Positions 3,668 through 37,267 of a DNA stretch of 64,000 nucleotides are shown one piece after another (the first letter of the stretch is position 1; each line of letters starts with the position of its first letter). The notes beneath the pieces are model-generated. The model had not been told where the DNA came from. It saw only the letters and a program-made list of their open reading frames with translations, and searched no databases. The stretch is taken from positions 1 to 64,000 of the IMG/VR virus record IMGVR_UViG_3300002460_000002, one strand, 5' to 3'. This DNA comes from an uncultured virus (IMG/VR IMGVR_UViG_3300002460_000002) (lineage: Duplodnaviria > Heunggongvirae > Uroviricota > Caudoviricetes). Made by a program: the position numbers and the translations under genes.

Positions 3668-5290
3668 CTACGAGAACACCTTCCGCCACAACGGAGCTAC
3701 GGCTTCCCACGTGTTCTCGACGAGAGTCCGGCGCCGGCCTTCTTCAGCTACGGCAAGACGATCCGACTCGTGCATGAGTAAATGTACGATCCGCTTGGCC
3801 GCGGCGTCGATAAAGGCTTCTGAAGTAACGGGAGGTCGGATGCAGTACCCACCTTTGACAAGCTCTGGGAGACAACCGACCGCGGCCACGACCGGAACGG
3901 CGCCTACGGCCTGGGCCTGGAGAACAACCTCGCAGCGGTACGGTTCGTCGAGGGGGACGTGCAAGAAGATCCTGCTGCGCTCTAGGTAGTGATCTTCACC
4001 AGGACCGCGAACATCATCACCAACACCGGCACGATCTATGATCTCTTGCTCGACCTCGTTCGGCGCATCACTAACCGCTACCCACGGCATTTTTCCGATG
4101 TCCTTGTCAAGCTTCATGTTGAAACCGAGCGGACACACCTTGATGAAGTCCGCTGACAGAAATGGGTACGCGCGCCGGTACTGTTCAGCCTGGAATTCAG
4201 AAACGGCGATCAAACCCCGGGCACGATGCAGGCCTGCAAGCTCCACCGGGTCCAGGGACGGGCGTCGGTCGAGGGGGAGGACGCACGAAAACTGTGCCCC
4301 TACCTTCGGAATGCTTGCAGCCGTGGCGTAGATCCTCTCATGACTCAAAATACTTTTCTTCGGTGGCGGATCGAACACCTCCGACAAGGGTACGACGATT
4401 TCCTGCGGCACCTCGGTATCGAAACCGACGATCGACCGACGCTGAAGCGCCTCTTGCGTCTGTATCCTCATGGAGTACCGCGGCAAAGCAGTATCCGTCG
4501 GACTCGCCTGTTCCAGTATCCGCAAAAACTTCTTCGCTTTTTCTAGATCTGGAGGCTCGGATTGCAAACAGATGTCAAGACCAAGGAGAGCCGGACGCAC
4601 AAAACGCGCTCTTTTATCCCACGGAAGAATGCTCAAAATCTCCTCGGCGGCAAGAAAACCGCGTTCGAGATGCTGGAGCGACTGGAACGACGACTCATAC
4701 CGAGCGCACGAAGCGAGTCCGAAAAAGGCATCCGGCAGCGCTGCCACAAGACTCGCCTGCGCGAACGCAGCGAACGCTTTATCATCGGCAGAATCCAAAA
4801 GCGCGTTCCCCTCCCGCACCAACTTCGCCGCCAACAACACTCCACTCTCCTCATGCGGCGGTCGATGCTGAACGACCGGTCCCCCCGACGTGAACACGTT
4901 CGACGCCACGAAGCCGTGATAGTTCACGAGCCCCATCAACTTCGACGGGTCCACGGTCGGCCAAAGAAAGTCTTCCAACCGCTCGGGAAGAGGCTTCCGG
5001 GCGAAACGCAACCGGTACGTGGTCTCGACTCGCTCATGGGGCATGAGGACGACGCGCTTGTTCTCTGAGATCATCTTGGCGAGCGCGTCACCCAGGGGGC
5101 CATTGATCTTCTCGTGGAGGCAAAAGAACCCGACGATGTCCGCATCGGTCTTCGCCGCGGCTTCCTTCCACTTCTCTATTTCGTGAGGCTCCCCAAAAAG
5201 ATAAACGACTTCGTCGAAACTCAAATACTCCTCGGGAAAATTCTCGTCGAAGAAGCCTTCCAACCCCATCACCAGCGCGATGGTCTTCAT
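3668..5290 (-). CDS. Glycosyltransferase-like protein (GT-B/GT4-like C-terminus) with helical-repeat middle
   Basis: LIAVSEFQAEQY and E.Y..VVLQAQAVGAVPVVAAVGCLPELV resemble the GT4 signature. Confidence 0.55.
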   Translation of the reverse strand: MKTIALVMGLEGFFDENFPEEYLSFDEVVYLFGEPHEIEKWKEAAAKTDADIVGFFCLHEKINGPLGDALAKMISENKRVVLMPHERVETTYRLRFARKPLPERLEDFLWPTVDPSKLMGLVNYHGFVASNVFTSGGPVVQHRPPHEESGVLLAAKLVREGNALLDSADDKAFAAFAQASLVAALPDAFFGLASCARYESSFQSLQHLERGFLAAEEILSILPWDKRARFVRPALLGLDICLQSEPPDLEKAKKFLRILEQASPTDTALPRYSMRIQTQEALQRRSIVGFDTEVPQEIVVPLSEVFDPPPKKSILSHERIYATAASIPKVGAQFSCVLPLDRRPSLDPVELAGLHRARGLIAVSEFQAEQYRRAYPFLSADFIKVCPLGFNMKLDKDIGKMPWVAVSDAPNEVEQEIIDRAGVGDDVRGPGEDHYLERSRIFLHVPLDEPYRCEVVLQAQAVGAVPVVAAVGCLPELVKGGYCIRPPVTSEAFIDAAAKRIVHLLMHESDRLAVAEEGRRRTLVENTWEAVAPLWRKVFS

Positions 5291-5844
5291 CGGCCCCTGA
5301 TCGGCCCGAGGTTTCGGACCACGGCGATCTCGATGTTCGTTTCGAGCGGCGTAGCCGGGGTTCGGGTGATGAGGGTCTCGATCGAGACCTTGCCTTCAAC
5401 TTGTTCAACGACAAGATGCTGAACAGTTCGACCATGTGCCTGCACGAGAACTAGACTGCCTGGATCTCGTGGCTGTACGATCGTCTTGAGACCATCACGC
5501 CAGGTCGGCGCTGCTGAATCTCCGCTTCCACCAACCTTGCCTTTCTCATCAAGCACAATACTCGAAAGCAGATCTGGCTCCCCCTCACGGTACACGCGTA
5601 CTTTCAGATCTGACCCCGGGTGGTACCCGTTCAAGGTGTTGAAGGTCCGGATGTCGAACACCAAACCCGTGAGCCCCCGATCGACGACCGCAACCCGATT
5701 CGGCGTCACTGTCTCGACGAACACGAACGGTCGTGGACCGGGCTCTACCACCAATTGGTAGACGTTCATGCCGACCTTGTCGATCACGCAACCTTGGGGC
5801 TCGCGCTTTCGGTCTCCGTAGCGACTGATGACGGCGGTGATCAT
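5287..5844 (-). CDS. Hypothetical protein
   Basis: 185-aa ORF overlapping both neighbours by 4 nt. Confidence 0.55.
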   Translation of the reverse strand: MITAVISRYGDRKREPQGCVIDKVGMNVYQLVVEPGPRPFVFVETVTPNRVAVVDRGLTGLVFDIRTFNTLNGYHPGSDLKVRVYREGEPDLLSSIVLDEKGKVGGSGDSAAPTWRDGLKTIVQPRDPGSLVLVQAHGRTVQHLVVEQVEGKVSIETLITRTPATPLETNIEIAVVRNLGPIRGR

Positions 5845-6071
5845 CGGGTCGGCTCTAGAGCATGCAACAATTTCTCGGGTGACTTCGCAGATACCGCATT
5901 CTTCTTGAAGCTTTCATCCCCGTGTGAAACCACCGTCCAATCTTGATTCAACGCCACGATTTCAACACAGATTAAACAAACAAGACCAAGCCCGTCATCG
6001 ACCGCGTACTCCGCTGGTGCACCAACAAACTCGCTAAGAACAAGACTCAACTGCTTGGCGGTAAACCTCAT
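5841..6071 (-). CDS. Hypothetical protein
   Basis: 76-aa ORF with ATGA overlaps. Confidence 0.5.
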   Translation of the reverse strand: MRFTAKQLSLVLSEFVGAPAEYAVDDGLGLVCLICVEIVALNQDWTVVSHGDESFKKNAVSAKSPEKLLHALEPTR

Positions 6072-6784
6072 TCCCGCCTCCGAATCGCGGCCTCGATGCG
6101 CGGCAACCTCTCCAGATCGTCTGGACCGTCGATGTCGTCGATGTAGTCCCAGAGATCCACATCGACCACGGTCGCCCCGAGATTATCCTCGGCCATGTGC
6201 ATGAACCGCCAAAGCCGCGCGTTCTTCTCGACGATGTCCGCGATCCGATCAGGGTCATCTACTCCGCCGCGGTGCAACGTCTCCTTAAGCGTTTCTACTT
6301 CAGCGAGCACGATCTCAAGCTGGTGAACGACCAGGCCGCGTTTGCTGGCCGAAAACGAGAACCCGTACAGCTCCCCGGCCGGCCGCCCGGTATGGATGTT
6401 CGGCGAAAATCGCCCGGCGAACGTGATCGGGACCGACGGGTCGATCAACTTGGTGAGGATGGTCGGCGAGAAGACGACGTCCCCACACAGCACGAGGTAC
6501 CGGTCGATCGCGTGAGATTCGAGCGGAAGCGCCCCGGCGACGGCCGCGAGGAAAAGCGGGTCCACGCTGTCCACGCGTTCGGCTCTTGCGTCAGACGCGA
6601 ACATGATCCAGTCGGGCGTTGGTGGCGCCACAACGCGCACAATCACCCGGTTGACCTCACGCAACATCCGTACCGTTCGGTCCACATTCGGTTCACCGTT
6701 CACCGGAACCAGCTGCTTCGCGCCCTCGTAGGATCCCATACGGGTCTGCTTCCCGCCGCACATGAGGAGAACGAAGAGGTTCAC
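6068..6784 (-). CDS. Nucleotidyltransferase (NTP_transferase/MobA-like)
   Basis: LLMCGGKQTRMG...KQLVPVNGEP, LCGDVVF, DIDGPDDL. Likely GTG start at 6784 after TTGACC-17-TAGCAA. Confidence 0.75.
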   Translation of the reverse strand: MNLFVLLMCGGKQTRMGSYEGAKQLVPVNGEPNVDRTVRMLREVNRVIVRVVAPPTPDWIMFASDARAERVDSVDPLFLAAVAGALPLESHAIDRYLVLCGDVVFSPTILTKLIDPSVPITFAGRFSPNIHTGRPAGELYGFSFSASKRGLVVHQLEIVLAEVETLKETLHRGGVDDPDRIADIVEKNARLWRFMHMAEDNLGATVVDVDLWDYIDDIDGPDDLERLPRIEAAIRRRE

Positions 6785-6816
6785 TGCTAGTTTGCTAACA
6801 TAGTAGCAAAGCCCGG

Positions 6817-7593
6817 TCAAGTCTCAATCAACGCCGCCCCCGGCCCGAGCCCGAGCGTCAACACCAGCACCTTCCGGCCTTCGGGAAGGTGGGCCCTGGC
6901 GCACTCGGCCGCCAGCTCGGCGTCGTTGATGACGTAGACCTGGGTGTCCGCCGGCACATCCGCCAACACTTCATCCACGAAAGTCTTGTGCCCGGCCACT
7001 CCGTACGTGCTTTCACCCGGCACCAGGTCATCCCCAATCGGAAACGGCAGGCTCAAAAGCAGCGGCACGTTCGGAAGCATCGTCGAAGCCTCTCGAACCG
7101 CATCCCGAATGAACCAAATCGACCGCTCTTGCTTCCCAAGCACGTCTTCAATCGGAATGGTTGAAAAATCCCGAGCGACGACGAAGCTGGCGCCGGGCGA
7201 CGCGTAACACTTCACCGAAGTCTGTCCCACATCGACCACGACCATCAGATCCTTGTTCGCAAAAAGCGCCTCTTTCGCGGTCCAGGCGTAGTTTCGACCG
7301 GCGAACATCCAGACTGGTGGCGCTCGCAGCATGTCCTGCAGCCCGAGCATCTCGGCACCGCCGCCTGCCAGGAACACGGTGTCAAACTCATGCTCCCGCT
7401 GAATAACCCCACACCCGCGAATAATACCGCTGGCGACGATACTCGCGGCTTCGGTTCTTGAATACTTGCGCGACAGGTCTTCGGTCAGACGCGCTCCGAC
7501 TACTTCCCAAAACTTCTGCCCGCTGCCGACATCCAGATCCCAGACCTGCAGCGGTCGGACACCCGGGCACGAAAGCCGAACGATCCGGCTCAC
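6817..7593 (-). CDS. ROK/ASKHA-fold sugar kinase-like protein
   Basis: VVDVGQTSVK, INDAELAA, LTLGLGPGAA. GTG at 7593 overlaps the upstream stop. Confidence 0.65.
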   Translation of the reverse strand: MSRIVRLSCPGVRPLQVWDLDVGSGQKFWEVVGARLTEDLSRKYSRTEAASIVASGIIRGCGVIQREHEFDTVFLAGGGAEMLGLQDMLRAPPVWMFAGRNYAWTAKEALFANKDLMVVVDVGQTSVKCYASPGASFVVARDFSTIPIEDVLGKQERSIWFIRDAVREASTMLPNVPLLLSLPFPIGDDLVPGESTYGVAGHKTFVDEVLADVPADTQVYVINDAELAAECARAHLPEGRKVLVLTLGLGPGAALIET

Positions 7594-10496: not shown

Positions 10497-12167
10497 TTGA
10501 TGATGTCACCGTTCGGGTACCAACGGCTCGGGTATCCCGGCATGGGATACCAGCAACTGGGCGCGAGCAGCCCAGCCGAAGCGGCCCTTCAACGGGCTGT
10601 CGTCGCCCTCGGCATGCTCACGAACGACGGCCGTCTGGCCCTGAAAGTTGACGGCATCGTCGGTCCGGGAACGGCCGCGGCCGTCAACCGGGCGCTGTCG
10701 GTCTACGCAACCACGGCCCCGGCAGCCGCGCGCACCGGCAAGCTCACGGTCGCGACGATCAAGGCCCAGGTCGCCGCCCTGACGAACCTGATCGCGACCG
10801 AAGCCAACCGACGCCAGGCCGGCAAAGCCCCGGTGGCGAAAACCCCTGCCGCCGCAGCCCCGACCGCGAGCAAGGCCGCTGTCGCGACTCTTCAACGCGC
10901 GGTTGCCACGCTCGGTGCCCAGCGCAACGACGCAACCCTCAAGATCGCGACCGACGGTCTCATCGGACCAAAAACAGTCGCGGCCACCAACCGCGCTCTG
11001 ACTCGCTACGTTTCAAGTGCACCGGCCAACATGCGCACGGGATCGCTCAACACCGCCCAGGTGCAGAGCAACGCCGCGATGATTGCCACCTACGTCGAGC
11101 GTGAGATCGCCGCGTTCAAGGCGAAGCCGGCCACGACACCAAAGGCTGCCCCGGCAATCTCCAAGACCGCTGGACTCGCGCTGCAGAATGCCCTTCGCTC
11201 GCTCGGAAACGCAACCAAGGACGCGGTTCTGAAGATCGCCGCGGACGGGATCGTCGGCCCTCGTACCCTCACCGCCGTCAACCGTGCGCTGACTGCCTAT
11301 CTGGGCAAGGCGCAGACGGACATGAACGGCATCAAGGCCAACATCGCCGCCCTCACATCGATGATCTCGTCCGAAGCCACGAAACGTGGATCCACTGCAC
11401 CGGTGGCGGCGACCCCTGGTGCGAAAGCCGCTGTTCCCGGCGGCGTCGCCAACCTCACCGTCGCGCGCATGCAGCGGGCGCTGATCGATCTCGGTGCCCT
11501 GGTCGGTGACTCTGTCCTGCGGATCGCATCGGACGGCATCGTCGGCCCGAAGACGACCGCGGCCATCAACAAGGCAATCTCGTCCTACATCCCGAACGCG
11601 CCTGCCGGGCTCAAGCAGAAGCTCTCCGCCGGCCAGGTCTCGGCCATGGCGGACGTCATCGCGTCCCAGGTCGAAGCCGCGGTCGCAGCGAAACGCGCGG
11701 TCGCTGCTCGAGAAGAAGCAAAGGGCAACGGCCCGGGGCCAACAGCAACACCGGAAGAGGCCCAGGCCCCGGTGCCGGACATCGGTCCCGCACCACGTAT
11801 CCAAGAGCCCGCGTACACCGCGCCGACACCGGCTGCGGTTCCATCTGAACCTTCCTACACACCGTCGCCGTCCGAAGCCGCTTACGCACGGCAGACGCAA
11901 CAGGCGCCGGCTCCCACATACGCTCCTTCATCTTCAACACCTGACTACTCAGCGATGTTGCCACCGTCCGCTGTACCTGGCGGAGGTCAAGAAATCGCAC
12001 CGACCCCGGGCGCCGATGTGCCCGCACCGGCCGAAAAGAAGAAATTCCCCTGGATGTGGGTTGGCGTCGGTGCCGGTGTGGCCGTTCTCGGCGGCATCGC
12101 CATCATCGCTTTCTCCAAAAAGCGAAGGCGCACGGCTCGACGTCGCCTGGTTCCGGCGCACGCCTAG
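10497..12167 (+). CDS. Membrane-anchored protein with four peptidoglycan-binding-like repeats
   Basis: Four LQ.A...LG...L.I..DG(I/L)(V/I)GP.T..A(V/I)N repeats, Pro-rich stalk, C-terminal TM, basic tail KKRRRTARRR. Confidence 0.7.
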   Translation: MMMSPFGYQRLGYPGMGYQQLGASSPAEAALQRAVVALGMLTNDGRLALKVDGIVGPGTAAAVNRALSVYATTAPAAARTGKLTVATIKAQVAALTNLIATEANRRQAGKAPVAKTPAAAAPTASKAAVATLQRAVATLGAQRNDATLKIATDGLIGPKTVAATNRALTRYVSSAPANMRTGSLNTAQVQSNAAMIATYVEREIAAFKAKPATTPKAAPAISKTAGLALQNALRSLGNATKDAVLKIAADGIVGPRTLTAVNRALTAYLGKAQTDMNGIKANIAALTSMISSEATKRGSTAPVAATPGAKAAVPGGVANLTVARMQRALIDLGALVGDSVLRIASDGIVGPKTTAAINKAISSYIPNAPAGLKQKLSAGQVSAMADVIASQVEAAVAAKRAVAAREEAKGNGPGPTATPEEAQAPVPDIGPAPRIQEPAYTAPTPAAVPSEPSYTPSPSEAAYARQTQQAPAPTYAPSSSTPDYSAMLPPSAVPGGGQEIAPTPGADVPAPAEKKKFPWMWVGVGAGVAVLGGIAIIAFSKKRRRTARRRLVPAHA

Positions 12168-12180
12168 AGCGTCCCGGTGT

Positions 12181-12581
12181 CAACCTGTTGAGCAAGGTTT
12201 TCTGCCTGCTACGCGTGCTTCTTCGACGACGCGAAGAGCCCCTGGTCTCAACTTCCAACCTGTTGAGCAAGGTTTTCTGCCACACCGATTGCTTGCACCC
12301 CTGAATTCCATCAAGGAACGGTCTCAACTTCCAACCTGTTGAGCAAGGTTTTCTGCAAAAGCTCACTCTCAAACAGGGTTCCAGGGATCGCCGTCTCAAC
12401 TTCCAACCTGTTGAGCAAGGTTTTCTGCAACACCCAGTCAAGCCCCCATCGAGCCTCGTCGAGCAGGCGAGTCTCAACTTCCAACCTGTTGAGCAAGGTT
12501 TTCTGCTCTGCGCGCGAGTTCCAGGAACGGCTGGACAAGGCGCTCGTCTCAACTTCCAACCTGTTGAGCAAGGTTTTCTGC
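12181..12581 (-). CRISPR. CRISPR mini-array: 5 full 36-bp repeats, 1 degenerate terminal repeat, 5 spacers (39, 40, 36, 42, 39 bp); no cas genes seen
   Basis: Repeat GTCTCAACTTCCAACCTGTTGAGCAAGGTTTTCTGC at 12245, 12321, 12393, 12471 and 12546; only its last 25 bp at 12181. Minus-strand form ends in GTTGAGAC and has an AACCT/AGGTT hairpin. Confidence 0.97.
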
Positions 12582-12746
12582 TGCCCCATTGATTTATGCC
12601 ACAATTTCACGTCTTTGACTCCGGTCTTTCGAGCGCCTGTCTTTCATGACCGTTACTTCTCTCCTCGTTCATCCAAAACCGCCGCAACATCTTGAAATCA
12701 CTTATGCGAGCGCCTCCCGGGCTTTCGACACCACCGAACCGCTCGC
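12582..12746 (-). promoter_or_regulatory. CRISPR leader
   Basis: Non-coding, AT-richer, on the side opposite the degenerate repeat. Direct repeat CGAGCGCCT (12630, 12707) and inverted pair GCGAGCG(12706)/CGCTCGC(12740). Confidence 0.7.
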
Positions 12747-13546
12747 TAGAGCACCCCGGTAAACGCGCCGAACTTGGCGCCTTCCGGCAACTGCTTCAAG
12801 AACGTAGATCGTGACGTGGCTTGGGCCGCGGCCTTGGCAGCTCTCGGCGAAAGCAACAGGACGTCCCCAAACTCAGGAACCTGGTGCACCGGCAGGACCC
12901 ACATCGCGTGAGGCAGGTTCGGCTCATGCGGGAGCTTCAAGTCAGGCGCAAAAGAGATGAACTCGAGATCATCGTCGAGAACGACGGTACGGATGAAATC
13001 GAACGAAAGTTTTTTCTCTTCGTCAACTACAAGGATCTTGAGAGAAGCCGCAACCGAATCAGCGTCGTCATCCCGCTTCGACTCCACTACCTCCCCGAAG
13101 GTACAACGAGCGAAAAACCGCGCAGGCGCCTGAAAATTGATCTCCCGCAGCGGGATCCGGTGCTCCCACTCCTCGCGGATCTCTCGTCGAATGGCTTGAA
13201 GACGTGCCTGGCGGCCGGCCGCTACTTTGGAGTCGTCGAAGCGCCGGACCGCAGTACAAGCACACGCAAGCTCATACCAGTGCAGCGCGCTATCGAGATC
13301 TCCTGTATCTTGACAGATGTCCCCGAGAAGACAGAGTGCGTCGACGGAGGGACCGTCGTTCAGAGCGCGAATGGCCCAAACCTCGGCCAGCTCAAACTCT
13401 CCACGCGCGACTGCATCTCTTGAAAGTCGAACCGCTTGATGCTGCCGCTCGTCTGAGAAGACCATCCGAGGCCCGATGATCTTCCGAAACTCCATCGTCT
13501 TTTCTTCGTCTCCGAGTGCAGCCTTGTACGTGTCGTAATCCATCAC
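12746..13546 (-). CDS. TPR-like repeat protein
   Basis: AEVWAIRALNDGPSVDALCLLGDI...ALHWYELAC module shared with neighbouring genes. Confidence 0.65.
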   Translation of the reverse strand: MMDYDTYKAALGDEEKTMEFRKIIGPRMVFSDERQHQAVRLSRDAVARGEFELAEVWAIRALNDGPSVDALCLLGDICQDTGDLDSALHWYELACACTAVRRFDDSKVAAGRQARLQAIRREIREEWEHRIPLREINFQAPARFFARCTFGEVVESKRDDDADSVAASLKILVVDEEKKLSFDFIRTVVLDDDLEFISFAPDLKLPHEPNLPHAMWVLPVHQVPEFGDVLLLSPRAAKAAAQATSRSTFLKQLPEGAKFGAFTGVL

Positions 13547-14493
13547 TTGCTCCTCATCCTGTCTCGCTCGGGTGCGAACTCAACCGCCTTTGCCCATGTC
13601 TCGGCGGCGGTTGAATCCCCCCGAAGTTTCGCCAACTCCGTGAGCAGCGCGAACGCATCCGGGTGTGGGCCATCAAACAACGCCCGCACCGCCCACATCT
13701 CCGCCGCTAAGATCTCCCCCTCTTCCCCGTACCGCTGTCCGACAGCGACACACAACGTGGCGCGACTGTCCGAAAACTCTCCGTGTGCTAGCTGGGACGC
13801 CAGATACTTTTCCGCCCACTTCGCGCCTTGACCGAGGTTTCCAAGAAACGTGTCGTGCTTTGCTAGGTGGTAGATGGCGTTCTGATCACCTTCTTCCGCC
13901 AACGGCCGCAACAACTCCATACCAGCGTTGCGCTGCTCGTTCCGACGCTGGTTGTCTTCTGTCGATCGCAAAGACGTGTCCTGAATGACCTTCGCCTCGA
14001 TCGGAAAATCCGGTCTCGCGCCCGGCAACTGATTATGCGTTGGAGACCGCCAACGCAAGTGCGCTCGGGCAAAGCGCGTCGGGTCACGAAACTCGAAATT
14101 CGCTGTCGCTCGCCACACCGAAAACGAATTGTACGGCGTGAACATGTAGCGGCCAGCTAACGCACGAAGATCGACCCGGCACTCCAGGTACTCGTCAGAA
14201 TCGAAGTGCATGATCCAAGGGGATCTGACGCGGGCCCATCCAAGATTCCTCGCGTTCGCGAAGTGAATCAGCCCGGCCTGCCACTGCTCCGCAGAAAGAC
14301 CAACATCCGCGTGTCCAAACGTCCACACCGACGATGTGAACTTTTCCGCGACCTTCCGTGTGTCTGGGTCCGTTGTACGGTCATCGATGCCGATGTCGAT
14401 CTCATCTACGTGCACCTTGGCCGACTCCAACGCACGTTCCAGACTTCGGGCGTCGTTCCGGACGATCATGCACAAGGCAATGAGCGGTTTCAT
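13543..14493 (-). CDS. GT2 glycosyltransferase with C-terminal TPR
   Basis: IALCMIVRND, HFANARN, WIMHFDSDE, THNQ. Confidence 0.85.
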   Translation of the reverse strand: MKPLIALCMIVRNDARSLERALESAKVHVDEIDIGIDDRTTDPDTRKVAEKFTSSVWTFGHADVGLSAEQWQAGLIHFANARNLGWARVRSPWIMHFDSDEYLECRVDLRALAGRYMFTPYNSFSVWRATANFEFRDPTRFARAHLRWRSPTHNQLPGARPDFPIEAKVIQDTSLRSTEDNQRRNEQRNAGMELLRPLAEEGDQNAIYHLAKHDTFLGNLGQGAKWAEKYLASQLAHGEFSDSRATLCVAVGQRYGEEGEILAAEMWAVRALFDGPHPDAFALLTELAKLRGDSTAAETWAKAVEFAPERDRMRSK

Positions 14494-15482
14494 CGTCGCA
14501 ACTCGTCTCGGCGCAAGAACCGTTTGGTGACCAACTCAGGAATACCAAACTCCTCCGACGGTAGCGTGATGCACGCGATCTCGTGCCACGCCAGCGCGTC
14601 TTTTTTTCGTCCGCGCAGGTCCGCGATGTCACCGAGCAAATAGAACGCTTCAAGACTCGGACCGTCCATCAGCGCCTTGACCGCCCACGTCTCGGCTGTC
14701 GCATAGTCCTTCTTGTCGAAGAAACCGCAAGCAACGAGGATCGCGAGTTGTCTACGCTCCTTCGCTGCAAGGCCGTGCACCTCTGTAGACAATCGAAACT
14801 CGTTCACCAAAGCGACGTGATCTTCGGATCCGGCATGCGTGGCGTGTTTCGCGACGTGGTACAGGGCGGCCAGATCTCCGGCCTTTGCATCGACTTTCAG
14901 ATCTTCGTTGGCGGCATCACGCTGTTTTCGACGACGCTCTTGCTCTGCTTTAGATCGGAGATCGAGTTGCTGAAAGACGTGGGCTCCCTGGTAGACGGTG
15001 TATTGCCATTTTTCCGGAATCACGAGTTGATTGTGGGTATGTGCCCTCCAACAGAACTCAGACCTAGCGATGCGGTGGTGATCGAGCGTGATACTGTCTC
15101 CCAGGTGCACGGGAAGAGCAATGGCACCAACGATGTCCGGCAGGCTCTTAACAAACGCGCGCAGATCGACAACGCACTCGAGAAACTCGTCCGAGTCGAT
15201 GACAAGGGTCCACGGCGTCTTCACCCGAGCGCGGCCGAGATTACGAGCCGCAGCGAAATTGATCTTGTCAACGGCCCAGGCTTCGTCTGAGAGCCCGATG
15301 TCTCCCTTCTCAAAGCCCCAAACTTCATCCGCCAATTGACCGGCCATGATGACGGTCTCTGCGTCCGACCGGCCGTCAACACCGACGATCACTCGATCGA
15401 CGTGAGGGCGGGCGCTCTTGATCGCGCGCTCCAGGCCGGCCGCGTCCGACCGAGCAATCATGTCGAGGGTGAGAAGGTCCAA
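14490..15482 (-). CDS. GT2 glycosyltransferase with C-terminal TPR (paralog of 13543..14493)
   Basis: LDMIARSD, NFAAARN, WTLVIDSDE, THNQ. Confidence 0.85.
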   Translation of the reverse strand: MDLLTLDMIARSDAAGLERAIKSARPHVDRVIVGVDGRSDAETVIMAGQLADEVWGFEKGDIGLSDEAWAVDKINFAAARNLGRARVKTPWTLVIDSDEFLECVVDLRAFVKSLPDIVGAIALPVHLGDSITLDHHRIARSEFCWRAHTHNQLVIPEKWQYTVYQGAHVFQQLDLRSKAEQERRRKQRDAANEDLKVDAKAGDLAALYHVAKHATHAGSEDHVALVNEFRLSTEVHGLAAKERRQLAILVACGFFDKKDYATAETWAVKALMDGPSLEAFYLLGDIADLRGRKKDALAWHEIACITLPSEEFGIPELVTKRFLRRDELRR

Positions 15483-15483
15483 A

Positions 15484-15519
15484 GCAAAAAGGCCCGAGGT
15501 ATTAATACCCCGAGCCTTT
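15484..15519 (-). terminator. Intrinsic terminator
   Basis: Minus strand AAAGGCTCGGGGTATTAATACCTCGGGCCTTTTT. Confidence 0.75.
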
Positions 15520-15552
15520 CTACTTTGCTAGCAAAATAGCTAGCCCGAAGTC

Positions 15553-16050
15553 CTACGCGTCATAGCTGTGCACGCGCCGGGCGTACACCATGACCCGCGC
15601 GGTGGCCGCGGCCGAGCCGCGCTTGGTCGCACGCGCCGCGAAGTGCCGCGTGAGGATCGGCGTCGCACCGTCAGTGTCCAGCGTCGCGGCCGCACCGGTG
15701 ATCGGATTGTTCGTCTTGATCAGCGACGTCTGCAGAATGGTCGCTGCTGCGGCCGCCGTGGTGGCGGTCACGAAGTCGAGCGCGATCCGCAACGAAGCGG
15801 TGCTGGTCGCAACCGCGCCAGTGGCCGCGATCAGACGCTCCCAAAGGGCAACGTCGTTCAACTGCTTCCGCCAGCCGGGCGAACCGACCGTCAACGGCGC
15901 CAGATCCTGGAGCACGTTGCCGAACATGTCACCGGTGTAGCTTCCGGTTGACCGAAACTGGGTCAACGGAAAAACCCGGATCGGGTTCAACGAGGCGTTG
16001 ATGAAGTCGGCGTAGAAACAGAGCTTCTTGCGTTGCACAGCGCTGGCCAT
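15553..16050 (-). CDS. Ala/Thr-rich hypothetical protein, possibly structural
   Basis: Strong AAGGAG RBS, upstream TTGACG, own terminator, strongly biased codons. Confidence 0.65.
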   Translation of the reverse strand: MASAVQRKKLCFYADFINASLNPIRVFPLTQFRSTGSYTGDMFGNVLQDLAPLTVGSPGWRKQLNDVALWERLIAATGAVATSTASLRIALDFVTATTAAAAATILQTSLIKTNNPITGAAATLDTDGATPILTRHFAARATKRGSAAATARVMVYARRVHSYDA

Positions 16051-16144
16051 GATGATCTCCTTGAGGATTCCCGACCACGGTTACGGGTACTCCCCGGAGC
16101 CGTCAAGTCGTCCCCGCAACTAGACCACACCTCTGCCCGCTGTG

Positions 16145-17986
16145 TCAAATCAGTGTCATCGCATCAGCGTCAACTCCTATAAATGTTGAAGACTTACGGA
16201 TCTCGGTCTCACCCACCAACGATTCATCCCCCATGTGTTGAACCAACCCAGGGAAGTGCAGCGCGGCCTTCGCACCCGGAAACGCCTTGGCATAGGCCAT
16301 GTCTCCTGCATGGCGCTCGGACCAATTTTTGACGACACCAGAATCCAGAATCTTCTGGGCCGTTTCGCACGACATCGAGATCGCCACGTTGCGGATGAAG
16401 GCATCCGTGAACAGGTACATTGGCGGTCCCTGGCGAAACGGCGCACCGAGTTCGCTCCACCAAACCGTGATCGGCGCATCTTCTGAAGGCACCACTCGCG
16501 CGATGTAATCGAGCGCGTTCTTCGCCAGGACGACATCGTCCTCGAACAGGGTGAGGCGCTTGGCGCCGAGAGCGATCGCAGCACGAAGCCCACGAAAAAA
16601 AGTTTTGGCTTGGCCTTGATCCCGTACTCCCTCTGCAATCCATCCCGGGCTGGGCGCACCAACACCCGTACCATCCACTATCAAGATTCTTGGCCCTCTC
16701 CATCGCCCTGCACCGGCCGCGTCTAGGCTCGCGAGCGTCTGCTCCCGTAGCTTGTCTCGCCCTTCTGTTGTCTGCACCACCAACGCGTGACTCTCGTCGT
16801 CCGGCGGACCGAAACGAACCGGCCGCACGTTCTCAACAGACTCGCGCCGGATCTCTTCCAACCGGCCGGGCTCAGACGCCACCAAAGAGATCGGCGGCTC
16901 GTGCGTGATCGCGCCTGCGGCCTCGTACCATCCGATCGCGGACTCGTAGTCCATTCGATCCAAGGCAATCTCCCCGAGCAGCTTCAACGCGTCCGCCCGA
17001 AAATTTCCATGCAACGACCGAAGTGACCATTGCTCGGCCTCGGCCAGTTGTTCCTTGTTGTAGTAGGCCAACGCCAGGGTAAGCGCCGCCAAGCCCCGCT
17101 CAACCGCGCCTGCATCCGGTCGCAGACGAATCTCCTTCACCAAAGCCTCCGCCACCACAAGATCTCCAGCGTTGATGGCTTGACTCAAATTCATTCGCGT
17201 TTTCTCCTTCACCTGAAAATATCGCCGCGCGATGTAATCTTCCGGGATCTCGTACTCCATCACCCGCTCAAAATTTTCTTGAATAGCTGGCAACATCGAC
17301 TCGTACCGCTCACGGGACAACCCCTTCACAGTGAAGGTCTCATCTAATTTGATGATCCCCGCTGGATTGAAGAAATCGCCGATGTCCGGTGCGCCGCAGT
17401 AGATCGGCACGGTACCGGTCGCGAAACAGTCGAGAATCTTCTCGGTGAAGTAACCGGCCGAAACCGCATTCTCCATCGCCACCGAAAACATGTAGTCACA
17501 GAGTCCCTCCTCTTTCATTCTGATACTGGAGTCGAGACCGAACACGTCGATCATATTCTGGTGTGCCCGCGCCCACCGAACCCGCTCCCGGTGCCCAGGC
17601 AACGCCGTCTTCGCTGACGTGATCATCGAACACAGCTTCGTCTTCGGATGAATCCGCATGTCCTTGATCCAGATTCCGGATGCTGGCGCCCAATAACACT
17701 TGATGCCGTTGTTGGCCATTACCGTCGAATGCGTGAAGATCTTTTCAAACCGGTTCATCAGCGGCGCGAGCTTCAACAACACACGATCCGTCCAGGCCGG
17801 AGTCTCCAACACCCAGGCGTAATGGGGACCGGCACCTTTCAGCTCCGGCTCCAACGCGTTCATGTCTACGTGAAACGTCGGCGCGGCTGACCTACATGAA
17901 TGATCCCACGTTACTAGTTTGGCGCTCTTGCCGGCGCACGTGCTGGGGGCGCCTTTGAAAGCGACGCCGTCGACGTTCCAGATCAT
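16145..17986 (-). CDS. Multidomain glycosyltransferase: GT10 fucosyltransferase-like + TPR + GT-A
   Basis: YMFSVAMEN...YFTEKILDCFATGTVPIYCG matches the GT10 motif; central TPR; C-terminal LFEDDV and LVQHMG. Confidence 0.8.
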   Translation of the reverse strand: MIWNVDGVAFKGAPSTCAGKSAKLVTWDHSCRSAAPTFHVDMNALEPELKGAGPHYAWVLETPAWTDRVLLKLAPLMNRFEKIFTHSTVMANNGIKCYWAPASGIWIKDMRIHPKTKLCSMITSAKTALPGHRERVRWARAHQNMIDVFGLDSSIRMKEEGLCDYMFSVAMENAVSAGYFTEKILDCFATGTVPIYCGAPDIGDFFNPAGIIKLDETFTVKGLSRERYESMLPAIQENFERVMEYEIPEDYIARRYFQVKEKTRMNLSQAINAGDLVVAEALVKEIRLRPDAGAVERGLAALTLALAYYNKEQLAEAEQWSLRSLHGNFRADALKLLGEIALDRMDYESAIGWYEAAGAITHEPPISLVASEPGRLEEIRRESVENVRPVRFGPPDDESHALVVQTTEGRDKLREQTLASLDAAGAGRWRGPRILIVDGTGVGAPSPGWIAEGVRDQGQAKTFFRGLRAAIALGAKRLTLFEDDVVLAKNALDYIARVVPSEDAPITVWWSELGAPFRQGPPMYLFTDAFIRNVAISMSCETAQKILDSGVVKNWSERHAGDMAYAKAFPGAKAALHFPGLVQHMGDESLVGETEIRKSSTFIGVDADAMTLI

Positions 17987-18867
17987 CGGATGAGGCTCGC
18001 GTAGAACTTGGAGGCTTCTTCACAGGCACGCACGTGCGTCGGAATGCCGTCAGGTTGCTGAAACCGTTGCGTCCACGAGTGATCCTTGTACAGCAAATCG
18101 TTCTGAACTCGCTTCCCATTGAGAAAAGCCTGCGCCAAAACGTCCAGCTCCGTCTCAGGAACCGTCTTCCAGGGCGCACCGAATCTACCCGCTGTCGTGC
18201 TTTCCTTGTTCACCTGCCAGGTCATGCAACACGGTTTACTGGGCCCGACGTGCCGACGGTTTCGCCACAGATGAGGATGAGTGACTCCGATCGTCTCAAG
18301 ATGATTCGGAGTCAGGCTCTGTTTTTTCCACTCGAGCCCTGCCTCGGCCGCGGCCGCGGCACCATCGAGAACACGAAGGTAGTCTTCACGACAGTAGAGG
18401 GCGCCGTCTGAGTGCCAAAGGTAACCATGATCTCGTCCGGGGCTGTTCTCACGAAGCCAGTAACCTCCGCGATGTGGATTTGGATGGTGCCAATCTGGAT
18501 CACCGAGACGCCACGACCACACAAAGGCGTATCGTTCAACCAAAACAGAAACAGCGTATCGAAAATCGGCAGGCCGGTAATAGATCTGGTCGTCGACGTT
18601 GATGCAAACGTACGAACCGTCCGGTGCAGTTCGGACCGTGTCCTCGAGCGCGGCCGCAAGACCAAAACCCCTCCCCTCTTGGATGAAAGTCGTCGAGACT
18701 TTCCGCTCTTCACTCATCAGTCTGGTGTACGCATCTTCATGTAACTGGCCCGTCGCTCGGCAGATGACCGTGATGTGGTTGATACCGGTGCACATATCGT
18801 CCATCGACCGCAGCAGTGACTCACACTGCATGGCCCGATCCATCGAGAAGATGATGGTTTCGATCAC
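17983..18867 (-). CDS. GT-A-like glycosyltransferase
   Basis: IIFSMDRAMQCESLLRS, CINVDDQIY. Confidence 0.55.
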   Translation of the reverse strand: MIETIIFSMDRAMQCESLLRSMDDMCTGINHITVICRATGQLHEDAYTRLMSEERKVSTTFIQEGRGFGLAAALEDTVRTAPDGSYVCINVDDQIYYRPADFRYAVSVLVERYAFVWSWRLGDPDWHHPNPHRGGYWLRENSPGRDHGYLWHSDGALYCREDYLRVLDGAAAAAEAGLEWKKQSLTPNHLETIGVTHPHLWRNRRHVGPSKPCCMTWQVNKESTTAGRFGAPWKTVPETELDVLAQAFLNGKRVQNDLLYKDHSWTQRFQQPDGIPTHVRACEEASKFYASLIR

Positions 18868-19469
18868 AGATGGTCCTTCAACACTGAAAGCGCCGCTTGC
18901 ATCACCTTTTGTGAAATGTGGTTTTCGTCGATGTAGAGATCCGGATCAGACCCATCTCCAAAAGGAATCGACATGAACCATTCTCCCCACCGCTCTCGAA
19001 GACCAGCGTTGAAAGCGGCCGTGATAATGTTTCGCTCTCGACAGGTTCCAACAGCACGGCTCGCTGGCGCCGTGGGAGACGACGGCACCACGTTCCAGAT
19101 CAACACCTGAACCCCGAGTTTCCAGATCTCGTCAATCACGCCGCAGTACCGATCAAGGCACGGCTCTACTGCAGCCTTCGGAGTCCCCCCACTCTCAAGC
19201 CAGCGGCGCGTGATGTGAACCCGGCAATCAATCTCCCCGGACACCAGCATCACCTTGCTACCCGGATTCAGTGTACCCAAAATCTTGAACAACTTCTCTC
19301 GACCCCCTGATGTACTGTTCGGCTTGCAAAGGTTGTACGCCAGCACCGCACCCAGACGGTACGATCGAAACTGTGGAAGCCGATTCGATGCTGGCGTCGG
19401 CCACTCGGGTTGCACCGCGTCTTCACCAGAAAAGAAACTGGTGTGGCTGTCACCAATGCAGTGGATCAT
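18864..19469 (-). CDS. SGNH/GDSL hydrolase-like protein
   Basis: CIGDSH, GEIDCR, DENH. Confidence 0.75.
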   Translation of the reverse strand: MIHCIGDSHTSFFSGEDAVQPEWPTPASNRLPQFRSYRLGAVLAYNLCKPNSTSGGREKLFKILGTLNPGSKVMLVSGEIDCRVHITRRWLESGGTPKAAVEPCLDRYCGVIDEIWKLGVQVLIWNVVPSSPTAPASRAVGTCRERNIITAAFNAGLRERWGEWFMSIPFGDGSDPDLYIDENHISQKVMQAALSVLKDHL

Positions 19470-20761
19470 ACCGACGCCTCTAAAATCCCGCGCCGAAGCG
19501 CGCCGTGGAGCCGGATTCGGTACTCGAGATTGACCCGCTTCACCATCGCGACCAGCTCCTCAACAGTCGGGTAACCTTCCGCGCCGAAGCTCAATAGATC
19601 ATCGATGAACAGTGTGTGGTCTCGTCGCGGCGCACCTATGAGCGCCTCCATCTCTGCCCTAATCGCCGTCGAAGTCGCGCCGGCCGAAGTCTTGCCGCCG
19701 GAATAGTGCGCATCAAGCCACAAGGTCGCGCGTCGGCCTTCTAGCCCGGCAAGAATCCCCGGCAATAATGCCCCAGAATCCCCATGAAGAATGTGGACAC
19801 CTGAAACATCCGCAAACCGCTCGACCCCTTGCCGCCACAGTGACTCAGAAATCTCGACGGAGATCACGGTGTCAAACACGGCTCGCGCAACAGACGTTGA
19901 CAAGCCTCGATAAAACCCAGTCTCGATGAACATCGTCGACGTCGCTGCGGCCTTCTTCAGGAGATGCAACGGCACGCTGTACGGCTCGAACGTGGTACCG
20001 AGCGGAGGCATCTCGGTTTCATCCGGTAGACCCCCAAACGACCGCGGGATTCCCCAGAAGAGCATGTAGTTGTTGGGACCGGTGAGTGGTACCTCTGGGT
20101 ATCGCTGCACCCCCAACGGGCCGAACAAGCCCGGCAACAGGTCCGCCGCAGCGTTGGCCGAGATGTACCCGCGGGGGCAGTTCATGGCAACTCGAGAGAC
20201 GTACAGCTTGATCACATCTGGCGGAAGTTCGCTCAGGGCGTAGTTGCTGATGAAAAGATCGGCTTCGATCTTCTGCGGCAACTCGAACGCGTTCACTAAA
20301 TGCGCTTCGGTGCCGAGCGTGTGCAGGTACTTCTGGGCAAGAGCGAGCGGCTCCGGCAAGTCAATGATTGTGTAGTCACTACTCGGCCAACGGGCCTTCA
20401 CGAGCCGAGCCAAGCCACCATACCCACCACCAACCTCCACGATTCGAGCCCCATTCAGGTCGCCAAAAAACCACGCTATGTCTGAAACATTCTTCGCGTA
20501 TCGAAGCGTCGTCGGGGATACCCGTCCAGCTTGGAGATACTCTTGTCTAACTGGCGATCCGATCGAATCATTCGTCTGCCACACATCGGGACGAAACTCA
20601 CCGGATGAAACACACTTTGCGTACTCAATACCCTGCTCCGGCGTCACGTGCTCGAGAATCCGCGTGTACTCCGGTCGTTGTCGAAATGTCGCGAACACCG
20701 CCGGATCTGCGACGGCCTGCCGGCAAAGCTCGCAGTAGTCAGTGTAATTGATGTCTGTCAT
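19466..20761 (-). CDS. Double SAM-dependent methyltransferase (sugar O-methyltransferase-like)
   Basis: IVEVGGGYGGL, FISNYALSE; second domain FIETG, GDSG, WLDAHYSGG, IDD. Confidence 0.8.
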   Translation of the reverse strand: MTDINYTDYCELCRQAVADPAVFATFRQRPEYTRILEHVTPEQGIEYAKCVSSGEFRPDVWQTNDSIGSPVRQEYLQAGRVSPTTLRYAKNVSDIAWFFGDLNGARIVEVGGGYGGLARLVKARWPSSDYTIIDLPEPLALAQKYLHTLGTEAHLVNAFELPQKIEADLFISNYALSELPPDVIKLYVSRVAMNCPRGYISANAAADLLPGLFGPLGVQRYPEVPLTGPNNYMLFWGIPRSFGGLPDETEMPPLGTTFEPYSVPLHLLKKAAATSTMFIETGFYRGLSTSVARAVFDTVISVEISESLWRQGVERFADVSGVHILHGDSGALLPGILAGLEGRRATLWLDAHYSGGKTSAGATSTAIRAEMEALIGAPRRDHTLFIDDLLSFGAEGYPTVEELVAMVKRVNLEYRIRLHGALRRGILEASV

Positions 20762-22830
20762 GGTCTCTCAAGCCTCGGATACGGCTTCCGCGAGAAGACC
20801 AGGTCACGCACGCGGGTCTGCCCCATCGGGTCAACCTTGTGGTCGTTGTCCGGCGTCTCCATGTTGTACCTATAGAGGATCTCCGGAATGTGGACCGCAC
20901 GCTCACGGGCCATCTCCAACATCGGAATCATGAGCGCCACGTCGCCGCCAGTTGTGAACCATTCCCCGGCGTCGTCCTTGAAATCAACCAAGTCGATCTT
21001 GTCAAACAAGAACCGCTTGAACGTTTTCAAGTGCGAACCGGCCCATGGAACCTGACGGTGAAGACCTTCGCGCGCGACCTTTGCCGGGTACGCGTTCATC
21101 CAGGTGAGCTTCCCCAAGGTGTCGCACCACGAGCCGTAGGTCATCCAGGCGCCGGCCTGGTACGCCTTCTCTACGTCCACTAGAACGCCGGGGTTCGCGA
21201 GCCAATCGTCGCCGTCGAGAACCACGCAGACATTCTCAGGATCATTCGCTCCGATGCTGGTCAAACCGTTTCGGATGTTGTGAAGAGACCCAAGCCGCAT
21301 CCCGTTACCCATGAACATGAAACTGTGTCGAATCGGTCTCTTGTTGATGAATGCTTGGATCTCTCTCACAGTGCCGTCGGTTGAAGCGTCATCAACCACA
21401 ACGCAATTAACATCAACGCAGATCTGGCCCTCAACAGACTCCAGGCACCGTCGAATCCACTTCTCCGCGTTCCTGACTGGAACAACCACGACGTACTTCG
21501 GTGGAGACTTCCCCGGCATCAACTTTGGGTCCAACTCCTTCTGGATCTCCGCTAGACGTTCCTCTCGCTCATCCACTAGTTGTGAAATCTTGACCCGGGA
21601 CCGCGTCTCGGGAACCACGCAAGCCAACTGATACCAGTCCCGCGCGATCTCGTCGCTATCTTCAATTTCACCCAAGAGACACATCGCGTCCGTTCGTGGA
21701 CCGTTCGCCATCGAAGCCAGCGCCCACTCTTTCGCCTTGGAAAAGTCTTCCCTCCCGTAGTACGTCGCCGCCAACTGGATCGCGGCGCCGGCAGCGACCT
21801 CGGGCTGCTCCGCCAAGGCTTGGACAGCGATCTCAGCCTTGTCCAGGTTGCCGCTGATCAAGGCCTGTTGAAACGCGGCGTGTACCTGATGAATCGTCGG
21901 TCCCTGTGGCTGGGCCTGAACGCGTGTGTTCGTGCTGTGAATGAGCCCCAGGATCAACGCCGTGAACTTCTTCGACTGCTCGGCACCGTCGAGGTGTCGT
22001 TCAACATACGCACGGTATTCCCCCGAATGATACGGGCTATCAATCAAGTCTCTTAACCGCTTGAAATCTCTCCACACCCAAAGTGGATTCCAGTTCGTCG
22101 TAGCCCCTGGGAAGTCGTGGATCAACGGCTTGATCCCAAGCGCCATTGCTTCCGCGACCGTGTACGAGAGCGTCTCCCAGATCGACGGGAGCAGCAGAAA
22201 ATTTGCGTCGATCGCGTCGAGCCAGGTCGCGGTGTCAACCATCCCGGTCAAGAAAACATTTGACGGTGCGGAGTGCTCCAGGTAGCGGACCAGCCTCGGA
22301 TTCTGCTCTGCCAGGGCGAGCGTCACATGCAACTGATGTTGCGGATTCTGCCTGGCCCACTCCATCGCGAGCTGGTAGCCCTTGTCGGATGTTGCCCTAG
22401 CCACGAGCGCAAAGACGTTGCCAGGTTTGCGCTCTTTCCACGGGAACTTCGTCAGATCGATCCCCGCCGGCATCACATAGGTCAACATCTTGTTCTCGAT
22501 GAGCGGGAACTGCTCCGCCGCCAACGTCTTCAACGTCTCACTCTCGTAAACCAGCGCGTCTACGTTCGCCCAGTTCAGTTGATTGAGCGGAAACCAGACG
22601 TCGTAACCACGCATCCTGAGCACGAGGCGCTTGCAGACACCTGACGCCGCGGCCTCGAACGCAATCTCGTTGCACCACTCAGACCACACCAGATCTGCTG
22701 CCGCGCACTTCCGGGCGTCGAAAACGTGGAGGATCTCAACCTCATGCCCGTTGTTGCGTAGGTGTGCGATGACCGGCTGTGAGAAATAGGCCGGGGAGAT
22801 CGAGCCGATGTCGAGAACGATGAACTTCAT
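20758..22830 (-). CDS. GT4-like + TPR + GT2 multidomain glycosyltransferase
   Basis: PSIWETLSYTVAEAMALG; VVVPVRNAEKWI, VVDDASTD, LDGDDWL. Confidence 0.85.
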   Translation of the reverse strand: MKFIVLDIGSISPAYFSQPVIAHLRNNGHEVEILHVFDARKCAAADLVWSEWCNEIAFEAAASGVCKRLVLRMRGYDVWFPLNQLNWANVDALVYESETLKTLAAEQFPLIENKMLTYVMPAGIDLTKFPWKERKPGNVFALVARATSDKGYQLAMEWARQNPQHQLHVTLALAEQNPRLVRYLEHSAPSNVFLTGMVDTATWLDAIDANFLLLPSIWETLSYTVAEAMALGIKPLIHDFPGATTNWNPLWVWRDFKRLRDLIDSPYHSGEYRAYVERHLDGAEQSKKFTALILGLIHSTNTRVQAQPQGPTIHQVHAAFQQALISGNLDKAEIAVQALAEQPEVAAGAAIQLAATYYGREDFSKAKEWALASMANGPRTDAMCLLGEIEDSDEIARDWYQLACVVPETRSRVKISQLVDEREERLAEIQKELDPKLMPGKSPPKYVVVVPVRNAEKWIRRCLESVEGQICVDVNCVVVDDASTDGTVREIQAFINKRPIRHSFMFMGNGMRLGSLHNIRNGLTSIGANDPENVCVVLDGDDWLANPGVLVDVEKAYQAGAWMTYGSWCDTLGKLTWMNAYPAKVAREGLHRQVPWAGSHLKTFKRFLFDKIDLVDFKDDAGEWFTTGGDVALMIPMLEMARERAVHIPEILYRYNMETPDNDHKVDPMGQTRVRDLVFSRKPYPRLERP

Positions 22831-23477
22831 AGAGTTACCCACCAAGACCGTACTCCTAATTCGCCAAGAAAAAGACGAGGCTCACAACCGAAAAAATCAT
22901 TGACCGCTTTAGCAACACCGTTGACTGACGGTCGAAGCGGCGGAAACTCAGGGTAATAATCGTGCCCTGCAAGAACTCCTCCAGAACGAATCTTAGTACT
23001 TGCAACAGAAAGCTCCAGCATGACGTGTTCATACGAATGATTTCCATCAAGAAACACGAACCCCAGAGAACCGTCACGGTACTGATTTAATGCCTCTACT
23101 GAGTCCTTTCGACACACATTCACGTTTTGCCAAGCACCATGCCGCTTCATAAAGAACTCGAACGCAGCAAAAAACCCTTCGGCCTGCTCACACAACTCGA
23201 ACAAGATCGGGATTTGGGTCGAGGGCCATGCTGGATCCCATAGGTCAATTGCATCGATCTTGACCTTCTTATTTGCTTCAGTACAAGCGTCTACGAAAAA
23301 CGCGATCGAAGCACCAAAAAGAGACCCGACCTCTACTACATGATCACCGTCTCTCAATTGTACAACCGCTTCACGGTACAGATTTTGAAAATCAAACCGA
23401 CCAGGAATCCCCTTGTAGAACGTGACTGTTTTTTCTGGTCTTTCTTCGTAACGCTTGAGGTCTTCAAGATCAATCAT
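22827..23477 (-). CDS. Class I SAM methyltransferase (Methyltransf_24-like)
   Basis: VEVGSLFGAS, FVFLDGNHSYE, GGVLAGHDY; lower GC than flanks. Confidence 0.85.
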   Translation of the reverse strand: MIDLEDLKRYEERPEKTVTFYKGIPGRFDFQNLYREAVVQLRDGDHVVEVGSLFGASIAFFVDACTEANKKVKIDAIDLWDPAWPSTQIPILFELCEQAEGFFAAFEFFMKRHGAWQNVNVCRKDSVEALNQYRDGSLGFVFLDGNHSYEHVMLELSVASTKIRSGGVLAGHDYYPEFPPLRPSVNGVAKAVNDFFGCEPRLFLGELGVRSWWVTL

Positions 23478-37192: not shown

Positions 37193-37267
37193 GAGGTAGG
37201 GTACCACTGCGGTGACGGTGAAGGCTAACGTCGGCCCACCACGCCGCGCCGCGCTCGGCGGCGACGG

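Follow-up and report, generated by a model that had tools for sequence, protein, structure and literature searches.

A CRISPR array without recognizable cas genes in a complete 96-kb phage genome from soil and groundwater

Results

We analyzed a window of 64,000 nucleotides, which comprises bases 1-64000 of a 96,328-bp virus record that has 76-bp direct terminal repeats and a completeness rating of 100%. At 12170-12581, the window contains a repeat-spacer array in which a 36-nt repeat occurs five times without change and once more, in degenerate form, at one end, with five spacers in between (Table 1). The plus-strand repeat, GTCTCAACTTCCAACCTGTTGAGCAAGGTTTTCTGC, occurs in five exact copies that start at 12245, 12321, 12393, 12471, and 12546; among dinucleotide-preserving shuffles, the mean number of repeat matches was 0.00 and none of 100 reached five. 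On the minus strand, the repeat reads GCAGAAAACCUUGCUCAACAGGUUGGAAGUUGAGAC and ends in GTTGAGAC, as stated in the original prediction, which was also right about the coordinates and about five spacers of 36-42 bp (39, 40, 36, 42, and 39 nt). The spacers are all different and mutually unrelated, and their GC contents of 0.53-0.67 bracket that of the phage (0.59). The repeats are spaced variably, at 75, 76, 72, 78, and 75 nt.

Structurally, a CRISPR array has at least three near-identical direct repeats of ~23-47 nt, unique spacers of similar length, and a degenerate end repeat with a noncoding leader at the opposite end. In the phage, we found five exact 36-nt copies, spacers of 36-42 nt that are all different, and both a degenerate end repeat and a leader-like noncoding stretch opposite to it. 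The degenerate copy matches the repeat at 27 of 36 positions overall and is exact over the 25 nt at 12181-12205 that adjoin spacer S1. Read on the minus strand, its first 25 nt are those of the repeat while its last 11 nt have diverged and, consequently, the 3′ arm of the repeat hairpin (see below) is gone. This copy begins 3 nt past the stop codon of the convergent plus-strand gene at 10497-12167. Elsewhere in the 96-kb genome, there is no further repeat copy with an identity of at least 22/36. We conclude that the repeat-spacer structure at 12170-12581 is a genuine CRISPR array.

Table 1. Features of the array and its two neighboring genes. For the array and the putative leader, the strand given is that of the probable transcript.
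Feature	Position	Strand	Observation
Peptidoglycan-binding, endolysin-like protein, 556 aa, convergent neighbor	10497..12167	+	PG_binding_3 6.4e-18, PG_binding_1 4.3e-9; PHROG endolysin families
Degenerate terminal repeat	12170..12205	-	25/36 nt in one exact run, outer 11 nt diverged
Spacer S1, 39 nt, leader-distal	12206..12244	-	Best exact match in own genome 13 nt; 24-nt core with 0 matches in IMG/VR
Five identical repeats with S2-S5 interleaved	12245..12581	-	Exact-copy count compared with shuffles
Spacer S2, 40 nt	12281..12320	-	0 matches
Spacer S3, 36 nt	12357..12392	-	0 matches
Spacer S4, 42 nt	12429..12470	-	0 matches; plasmid alignment with E = 0.4 over the spacer/repeat border, a chance alignment
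Spacer S5, 39 nt, leader-proximal	12507..12545	-	0 matches
Putative leader, between the stop codon of the TPR gene and the first full repeat	12582..12745	-	164 nt, no ORF, lower GC
TPR protein, 266 aa, upstream neighbor, not Cas	12746..13546	-	Three relatives, one with PF13432; Atlas TPR clusters 0.92

The surroundings of the array (11400-13400) are present in 20 DNA runs from groundwater and soil, which belong to 14 studies, and eight of these runs contain at least half of the sampled words. In contigs from four independent groundwater/soil runs, S1, S2, S3, and S5 are reproduced with zero differences (S4 is uncovered in the listed contigs), and the contigs of these four runs contain neither alternative spacer ends nor signs of spacer turnover. 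Because these spacers recur in independent runs, the array is not an assembly artefact; rather, it is real and stable across sites. The contigs in the four runs break at the repeats, as in short-read graphs. In one run, the unitig of the 36-nt repeat has a depth of 126.7 compared with 26.1-26.9 for the flanks and, in a second run, a depth of 56.7 compared with 7.7-10.8. These ratios roughly correspond to the five copies in the phage itself, but depth does not equal copy number and the values were left out of the argument. Using the two genes that flank the array, we found no related locus in IMG/VR.

The putative leader is located at the array end opposite the degenerate repeat and has a GC content of 0.524 compared with 0.592 for the genome, which places it at the 10th percentile among 164-nt windows. 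A consensus scan of 12582-12745 detected no sigma-70-type promoter. CRISPR arrays usually decay at the leader-distal end. Because the degenerate repeat lies at the low-coordinate end and the 164-nt noncoding stretch of lower GC lies opposite to it, we place the leader at 12582-12745 and read the array on the minus strand. Based on the positions of the degenerate repeat and the leader, the array is probably transcribed from this strand, and it would then come after a long minus-strand glycosyltransferase operon. In the minus-strand repeat, CUCAAC and GUUGAG form a weak 6-bp hairpin 2 nt from the 3′ end (-6.1 kcal/mol, z = 0.02). The fold of the whole array transcript is less structured than those of shuffles (z = +2.33) and has no consistent repeat hairpin.

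The original prediction assigned the array to a host type III or type I system. By general typology, a 36-nt repeat with spacers of variable length (36-42 nt) fits type III or some type I arrays, and the repeat end GUUGAGAC may resemble an AUUGAAAC-type 8-nt handle; it is on this typology that a type III or type I assignment would be based. The layout may also be type V-like, as the hairpin next to the spacer may resemble that of some type V crRNAs. Neither Rfam nor our genome and metagenome scans placed the repeat in a family associated with cas operons of type III or type I; with no match to an Rfam CRISPR-DR family and no cas-linked array carrying the repeat, the proposal of a type III host system is unsupported. 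It had further been suggested that each spacer encodes a plausible peptide on the plus strand and that minus-strand crRNAs would, thus, be antisense to mRNA. The quoted peptides can indeed be read from the plus strand. They are uninformative, as the spacers are open in two to three frames on both strands, and ~99% of random 36-42-nt fragments of the genome contain at least one open frame. The antisense argument was built on the same open frames and has to be given up.

Based on length and third-position GC, we called 140 ORFs of at least 60 aa over the whole genome and scanned 104 ORFs against Pfam, 139 against PADLOC, 22 against NCBIfam, and 30 against PHROGs. Across the 96,328-bp genome, these four collections identified no Cas effector, Cas6, Cas5/7, Cas1, or Cas2, and Pfam and PADLOC gave no RuvC, HEPN, HNH, or TnpB family match in 139 ORFs. 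A CRISPR-Cas locus would have cas genes in the same genome, and we found none. Thus, the earlier statement that the window contains no cas gene was borne out and extends to the complete genome; a cas operon elsewhere on the record, which would have spoken against a Cas-less array, was looked for in all 96,328 bp and was absent. The description as a Cas-less viral CRISPR array, accordingly, holds for a complete, terminally repeated virus genome with no recognizable cas gene in 139 ORFs. The only cas-related signal consisted of weak matches to Cas4 models (best E = 3.6e-5) in a 454-aa PD-(D/E)XK nuclease (40589-41953, plus strand). This nuclease also matches PHROG exonuclease families, has cysteines at positions 26, 230, 236, and 242, and is encoded between the primase/helicase and helicase genes; from its sequence, it is predicted to be a Cas4-like recombination exonuclease of the replication module.

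The TPR protein encoded upstream of the array (12746-13546) has no match in PADLOC, NCBIfam, Pfam, or PHROG. In its AF2 model, the N-terminal half is helical with a block pLDDT of 75-94, and the C-terminal half is unmodelled. The four largest ORFs without a family (739, 788, 513, and 630 aa) are rich in A, G, T, and V with 5% K+R, which is a fibre-like composition; they contain neither CxxC pairs nor HEPN-like motifs in pairs. The Atlas gave weak tail-fibre leads for the 788-aa ORF, and a PDB sequence search with the 739-aa and 788-aa ORFs returned no matches. Based on their size, we had considered these two ORFs as candidates for a Cas12j/CasPhi-like effector; we rejected this on account of the 5% K+R and, for the 788-aa ORF, of the weak Atlas tail-fibre lead. 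A 615-aa ORF (29650-31497, minus strand) comes from an uncharacterized family and has 107 relatives by exhaustive HMMER, and none of the 40 members scanned had a PHROG match. In its AF2 model (mean pLDDT 75.6), a beta domain is combined with long coiled coils and with a C-terminal domain that is helical and modelled with confidence; Foldseek gave no PDB match for the model at E ≤ 0.001. Judged by this model, nothing in the protein appears nuclease-like, and it may be a virion or scaffold protein.

The original prediction called for a search of the spacers against viral genomes. We carried out this search, and none of the five spacers had a match in GenBank phages, IMG/VR, plasmids, or the phage itself. 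Specifically, blastn of the whole array against GenBank phages gave no match at E ≤ 1; 0/5 exact 24-nt spacer cores matched in IMG/VR, a search that targets with mismatches within the core would escape; and the only plasmid alignment was a chance one (E = 0.4) across the S4 spacer/repeat border. Thus, none of the spacers yielded a protospacer from which a location on the transcribed strand, as in type III, or a shared PAM, as in type I, could be read. Within the phage genome, there are no self-targets, the longest exact match being 13 nt and the longest with one mismatch 15 nt. The spacer GC contents that bracket the phage GC and the absence of a self-match fit guides directed against other elements of similar host range.

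The repeat was also expected to identify the host, and this expectation failed in genome, metagenome, 401-genome, and Rfam searches, none of which yielded a matching array. When a single genome from each bacterial and archaeal species was scanned with the pattern GTCTCAAC-N9-GTTGAGCAAG, we obtained nine single chance matches with 22-24/36 identity, none of which is in an array. A scan of metagenome contigs with a 20-position pattern gave one match, which is non-array. Among 401 genomes from the phylum of one Myxococcales MAG, none matched the repeat with up to three mismatches; we chose this phylum because the named homologues of the phage peptide deformylase include Sandaracinaceae and Myxococcales. 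A 25-nt part of the repeat has no second occurrence in IMG/VR, Rfam, with its CRISPR-DR families included, gave no match to 12100-12760 at E ≤ 10, and full-text searches of the literature with the 7-8-nt repeat end yielded nothing beyond primers and papers on other subjects. The scans for the repeat demanded exact identity at 18-20 positions or at most three mismatches and covered one genome per species. CRISPR arrays assemble badly. For these reasons, the negative results for the repeat are weak ones.

The phage encodes a family-A DNA polymerase, a DUF5906 primase/helicase, a DEAD-type helicase, the PD-(D/E)XK exonuclease, ThyX, and a dCMP deaminase for replication as well as a HerA/FtsK-like ATPase, the endolysin-like protein with peptidoglycan-binding domains, an SLT transglycosylase, and fibre-like proteins. 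Isolated phages are only distantly related, with best identities among GenBank phages of 27.8% for the DNA polymerase and 30.4% for the HerA-like ATPase. The HerA/FtsK-type ATPase (32608-34335, plus strand) matches DUF87 in Pfam, HerA models in PADLOC (down to 7.5e-20), and phrog_2666, a terminase family, in PHROGs and, based on these matches, may be the packaging ATPase of a tailed phage. Outside the window (record positions 76176-78509 and 82398-83183), a ParB-like protein, a 213-aa tyrosine recombinase, and two DNA methyltransferases are encoded. The sequences of the tyrosine recombinase and the ParB-like protein hint at a possible temperate or plasmid-like state, in which the array could protect the lysogen.

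The array is located at the 3′ end of a minus-strand run of glycosyltransferase and methyltransferase genes that extends over ~10 kb (13543-23477; GT2, GT1, GT10-like, and Methyltransf_24). Near this glycan cluster, at 3668-6820, the phage also encodes a GT1-like protein and a MobA-like nucleotidyltransferase. For a 96-kb phage, the glycan-synthesis/modification cluster is unusually large. The genome also contains accessory host-like genes (53229-53582, 59980-60276, 61723-62764, and 28932-29004) for an RRM-domain RNA-binding protein, a thioredoxin, a RadC-like JAB protein, a peptide deformylase, and tRNA-Met. The peptide deformylase (Pfam 6.6e-43) has nearest homologues of cellular length that are 44-52% identical; the few named ones are from Sandaracinaceae, Myxococcales, Acidiferrobacterales, Gammaproteobacteria, and Burkholderiaceae. 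At these identities and with the named homologues scattered too widely across taxa, we rejected the assignment of a host by this gene.

In an AT-rich intergenic region at 37450-38099, the 12-nt motif TAACGCRGTACA, with up to one mismatch allowed, occurs 11 times over the two strands, compared with a chance expectation of 0.19. Gene orientation and GC skew both change sign at this region, which immediately precedes the replication module, and the region probably serves as an origin or as several operator sites. Tandem repeats at 37258-37430, which consist of a 33-nt unit present 2.5 times and GCCCA pentamers present 8.4 times, adjoin this region and lie inside or at the end of the minus-strand ORF at 36839-37450. 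The record contains single N bases at 2246, inside the ORF at 1991-2488, and at 95155, inside the ORF at 94747-95241.

Discussion

We favor, with somewhat better than even confidence, an explanation in which the phage carries a Cas-less array with its own leader that was captured from a cellular locus and is served by host Cas proteins against competing mobile elements. According to this model, the phage would have captured the leader-proximal end of a cellular CRISPR locus, and the array would be transcribed on the minus strand from the putative leader at 12582-12745. The pre-crRNA would then be cut and loaded by Cas proteins of the infected, possibly lysogenized, host, and the five guides would direct the host Cas machinery at other mobile elements in competition for this host. 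Because the phage has no cas genes of its own, host machinery is most likely borrowed. Of this model, the strand that is transcribed, the reliance on host Cas proteins, and the kind of target are inferred. By the original prediction's own reckoning, the absence of a matching host repeat would count against borrowing from a host; no such repeat was found, a weak negative given the 18-20 exact positions, and host borrowing stays a proposal. The anatomy of the locus and the lack of cas genes and of self-targets agree with the known class of Cas-less phage arrays considered below; we regard the locus as a compact array of this class that was probably captured from the leader end of a host locus and for which host Cas proteins would act in trans.

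The reuse of host CRISPR machinery by a phage with a Cas-less array is an already documented strategy, and among the known cases cyanophage N-1, whose array is likewise Cas-less, comes closest. As described by Chenard et al. (2016, PMC4916379), this Nostoc cyanophage is a lytic tailed phage without cas genes and has an array of ~400 bp with five 37-bp repeats, four unmatched spacers of 29-37 bp, and a leader of ~120 bp. According to the same report, the N-1 array is transcribed during infection, and its authors proposed that it was captured from a host and uses host Cas proteins against competing phages (PMC4916379). The two arrays are alike in having no cas genes, five full repeats, a leader, and unmatched spacers. 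They differ in that the N-1 array is described as transcribed and its repeat as clustering with the DR5 family of cyanobacterial hosts, whereas the present repeat matches no known family or host and the present array was read from DNA alone; the N-1 phage repeat is, however, also described as different from host repeats (PMC4916379).

For phage arrays, the survey of Al-Shayeb et al. (2020, PMC7162821) gives a median of six repeats and describes them as compact; many of the phage systems come without interference genes and may use host Cas proteins. The array studied here resembles these huge-phage arrays, which are from metagenomic phages including groundwater ones and are compact and in many cases without interference and adaptation genes, and its six repeats fit this compact class (PMC7162821). 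By contrast, the phages in that account are >200 kb, with some repeats matching the host, while the present phage has only 96 kb and its repeat matched no host in our scans. Among archaeal viruses, SPV1 and SPV2 of Sulfolobales are reported to carry Cas-less mini-CRISPR arrays that exploit host Cas proteins in virus-virus conflict (Medvedeva et al. 2019, PMC6858448) and, like the array described here, these arrays are Cas-less and in viral genomes. PMC11656645 defines a mini-array by a count of one or two spacers, by repeats that are the same as in the host, and by spacers against related viruses. The present array departs from this in having five spacers; as for the other two points, 0/5 spacers matched a virus (blastn against GenBank phages; exact 24-nt cores in IMG/VR), and no scanned array carried its repeat at 18-20 exact positions or with at most three mismatches.

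Some phages use CRISPR repeats as counter-defence, and the array could accordingly produce decoys or regulators, in the manner of an RNA anti-CRISPR or Cracr array, that occupy host Cas proteins or silence host cas genes. We consider this unlikely. Phage repeat mimics are reported to inhibit CRISPR-Cas (PMC10651486), multi-spacer Cracr arrays are reported in phages (30 arrays with two to three spacers; bioRxiv 10.1101/2024.10.29.618823), and both resemble the present array as CRISPR repeats without cas genes in phages, sometimes stacked. That no spacer matches any virus in GenBank phages or IMG/VR also leaves room for host targets. However, Racrs are described as solitary repeat units, and Racrs and Cracrs together as solitary repeats or arrays of two to three pseudo-spacers matching regulatory sites of host cas genes (types I and V-A), whereas the phage array has five regular full-length spacers and no stand-alone repeat (no further copy with at least 22/36 identity in 96 kb). 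For a Cracr, part of the spacer is stated to match a host CreA/CreR target, with at least 9 PAM-proximal bp, at cas or toxin promoters (bioRxiv 10.1101/2024.10.29.618823). Moreover, the Cracr arrays in that account are of types I-C, I-E, and I-F, with single Cracrs also of types V-A and I-B, and their repeats resemble known host CreA/CreR RNAs, while the repeat of the phage array resembles no known family in Rfam. Somewhat less probable still is that the array is an inert passenger, i.e., a fragment of a host array that was gained by illegitimate recombination and is functionless in the phage. The array end inside a repeat, 3 nt past the stop codon of a gene, would agree with such an origin, as would the lack of a detected promoter, of detected targets, and of spacer differences among the four runs. 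What speaks mildly for function is that all five full repeats are still 36/36 identical and that the leader-like stretch has been kept; the unchanged array in phage populations from several groundwater/soil studies argues mildly in the same direction, and compact phage genomes seldom retain 570 bp of useless DNA.

The remaining alternatives dispense with a host Cas system. It is very doubtful that the array belongs to a self-sufficient system with an unrecognized effector among the phage's own unannotated proteins, even though the repeat matches no known family or host, the majority of phage ORFs are without a family, and the hairpin 2 nt from the spacer-proximal end of the repeat may resemble that of some type V crRNAs. 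No candidate adjoins the array, with neighbors that are the TPR protein and the endolysin-like protein; the large ORFans are fibre-like, with 5% K+R and neither CxxC pairs nor paired HEPN-like motifs; the 615-aa ORF is, by its model, a coiled-coil protein; and RuvC, HEPN, HNH, and TnpB family matches are absent from 139 ORFs. The least probable explanation, to which we give hardly any credence, is that the repeats have nothing to do with CRISPR and are protein-binding sites such as a centromere or iterons for the ParB-like protein; the phage does encode this protein outside the window, and there is a 6-bp inverted repeat within each repeat unit. Against this, the spacing of 75, 76, 72, 78, and 75 nt is unphased and the intervening sequences are mutually unrelated; point by point, including the degenerate end repeat, the architecture is that of a CRISPR array; the gene for the ParB-like protein is ~70 kb from the array along the linear record or ~26 kb across the terminal repeats; and the real iteron-like cluster of the phage is elsewhere, at 37562-38018.

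The Cas-less array served by a host, which we favor, leaves one unusual point, namely a repeat without relatives in the collections searched. Because the repeat has no Rfam CRISPR-DR match and no occurrence in the scanned genomes and contigs, we also considered that it represents an undescribed CRISPR repeat family, which might mark an uncatalogued CRISPR-Cas variant in an unsampled soil/groundwater host or among the phage ORFans. We regard this as improbable; if true, an abundant phage would provide a handle for finding the variant.

Altogether, Cas-less arrays illustrate how phages turn the immunity of their hosts to their own use, be it to fight rival elements or to counter the defence of the host itself. 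To a list in which huge phages and archaeal viruses predominate, the array described here adds a complete, widely distributed soil/groundwater phage of 96 kb. Should the same metagenomes yield the host together with its Cas system, the five spacers would become a direct, testable map of the competitors of this phage.
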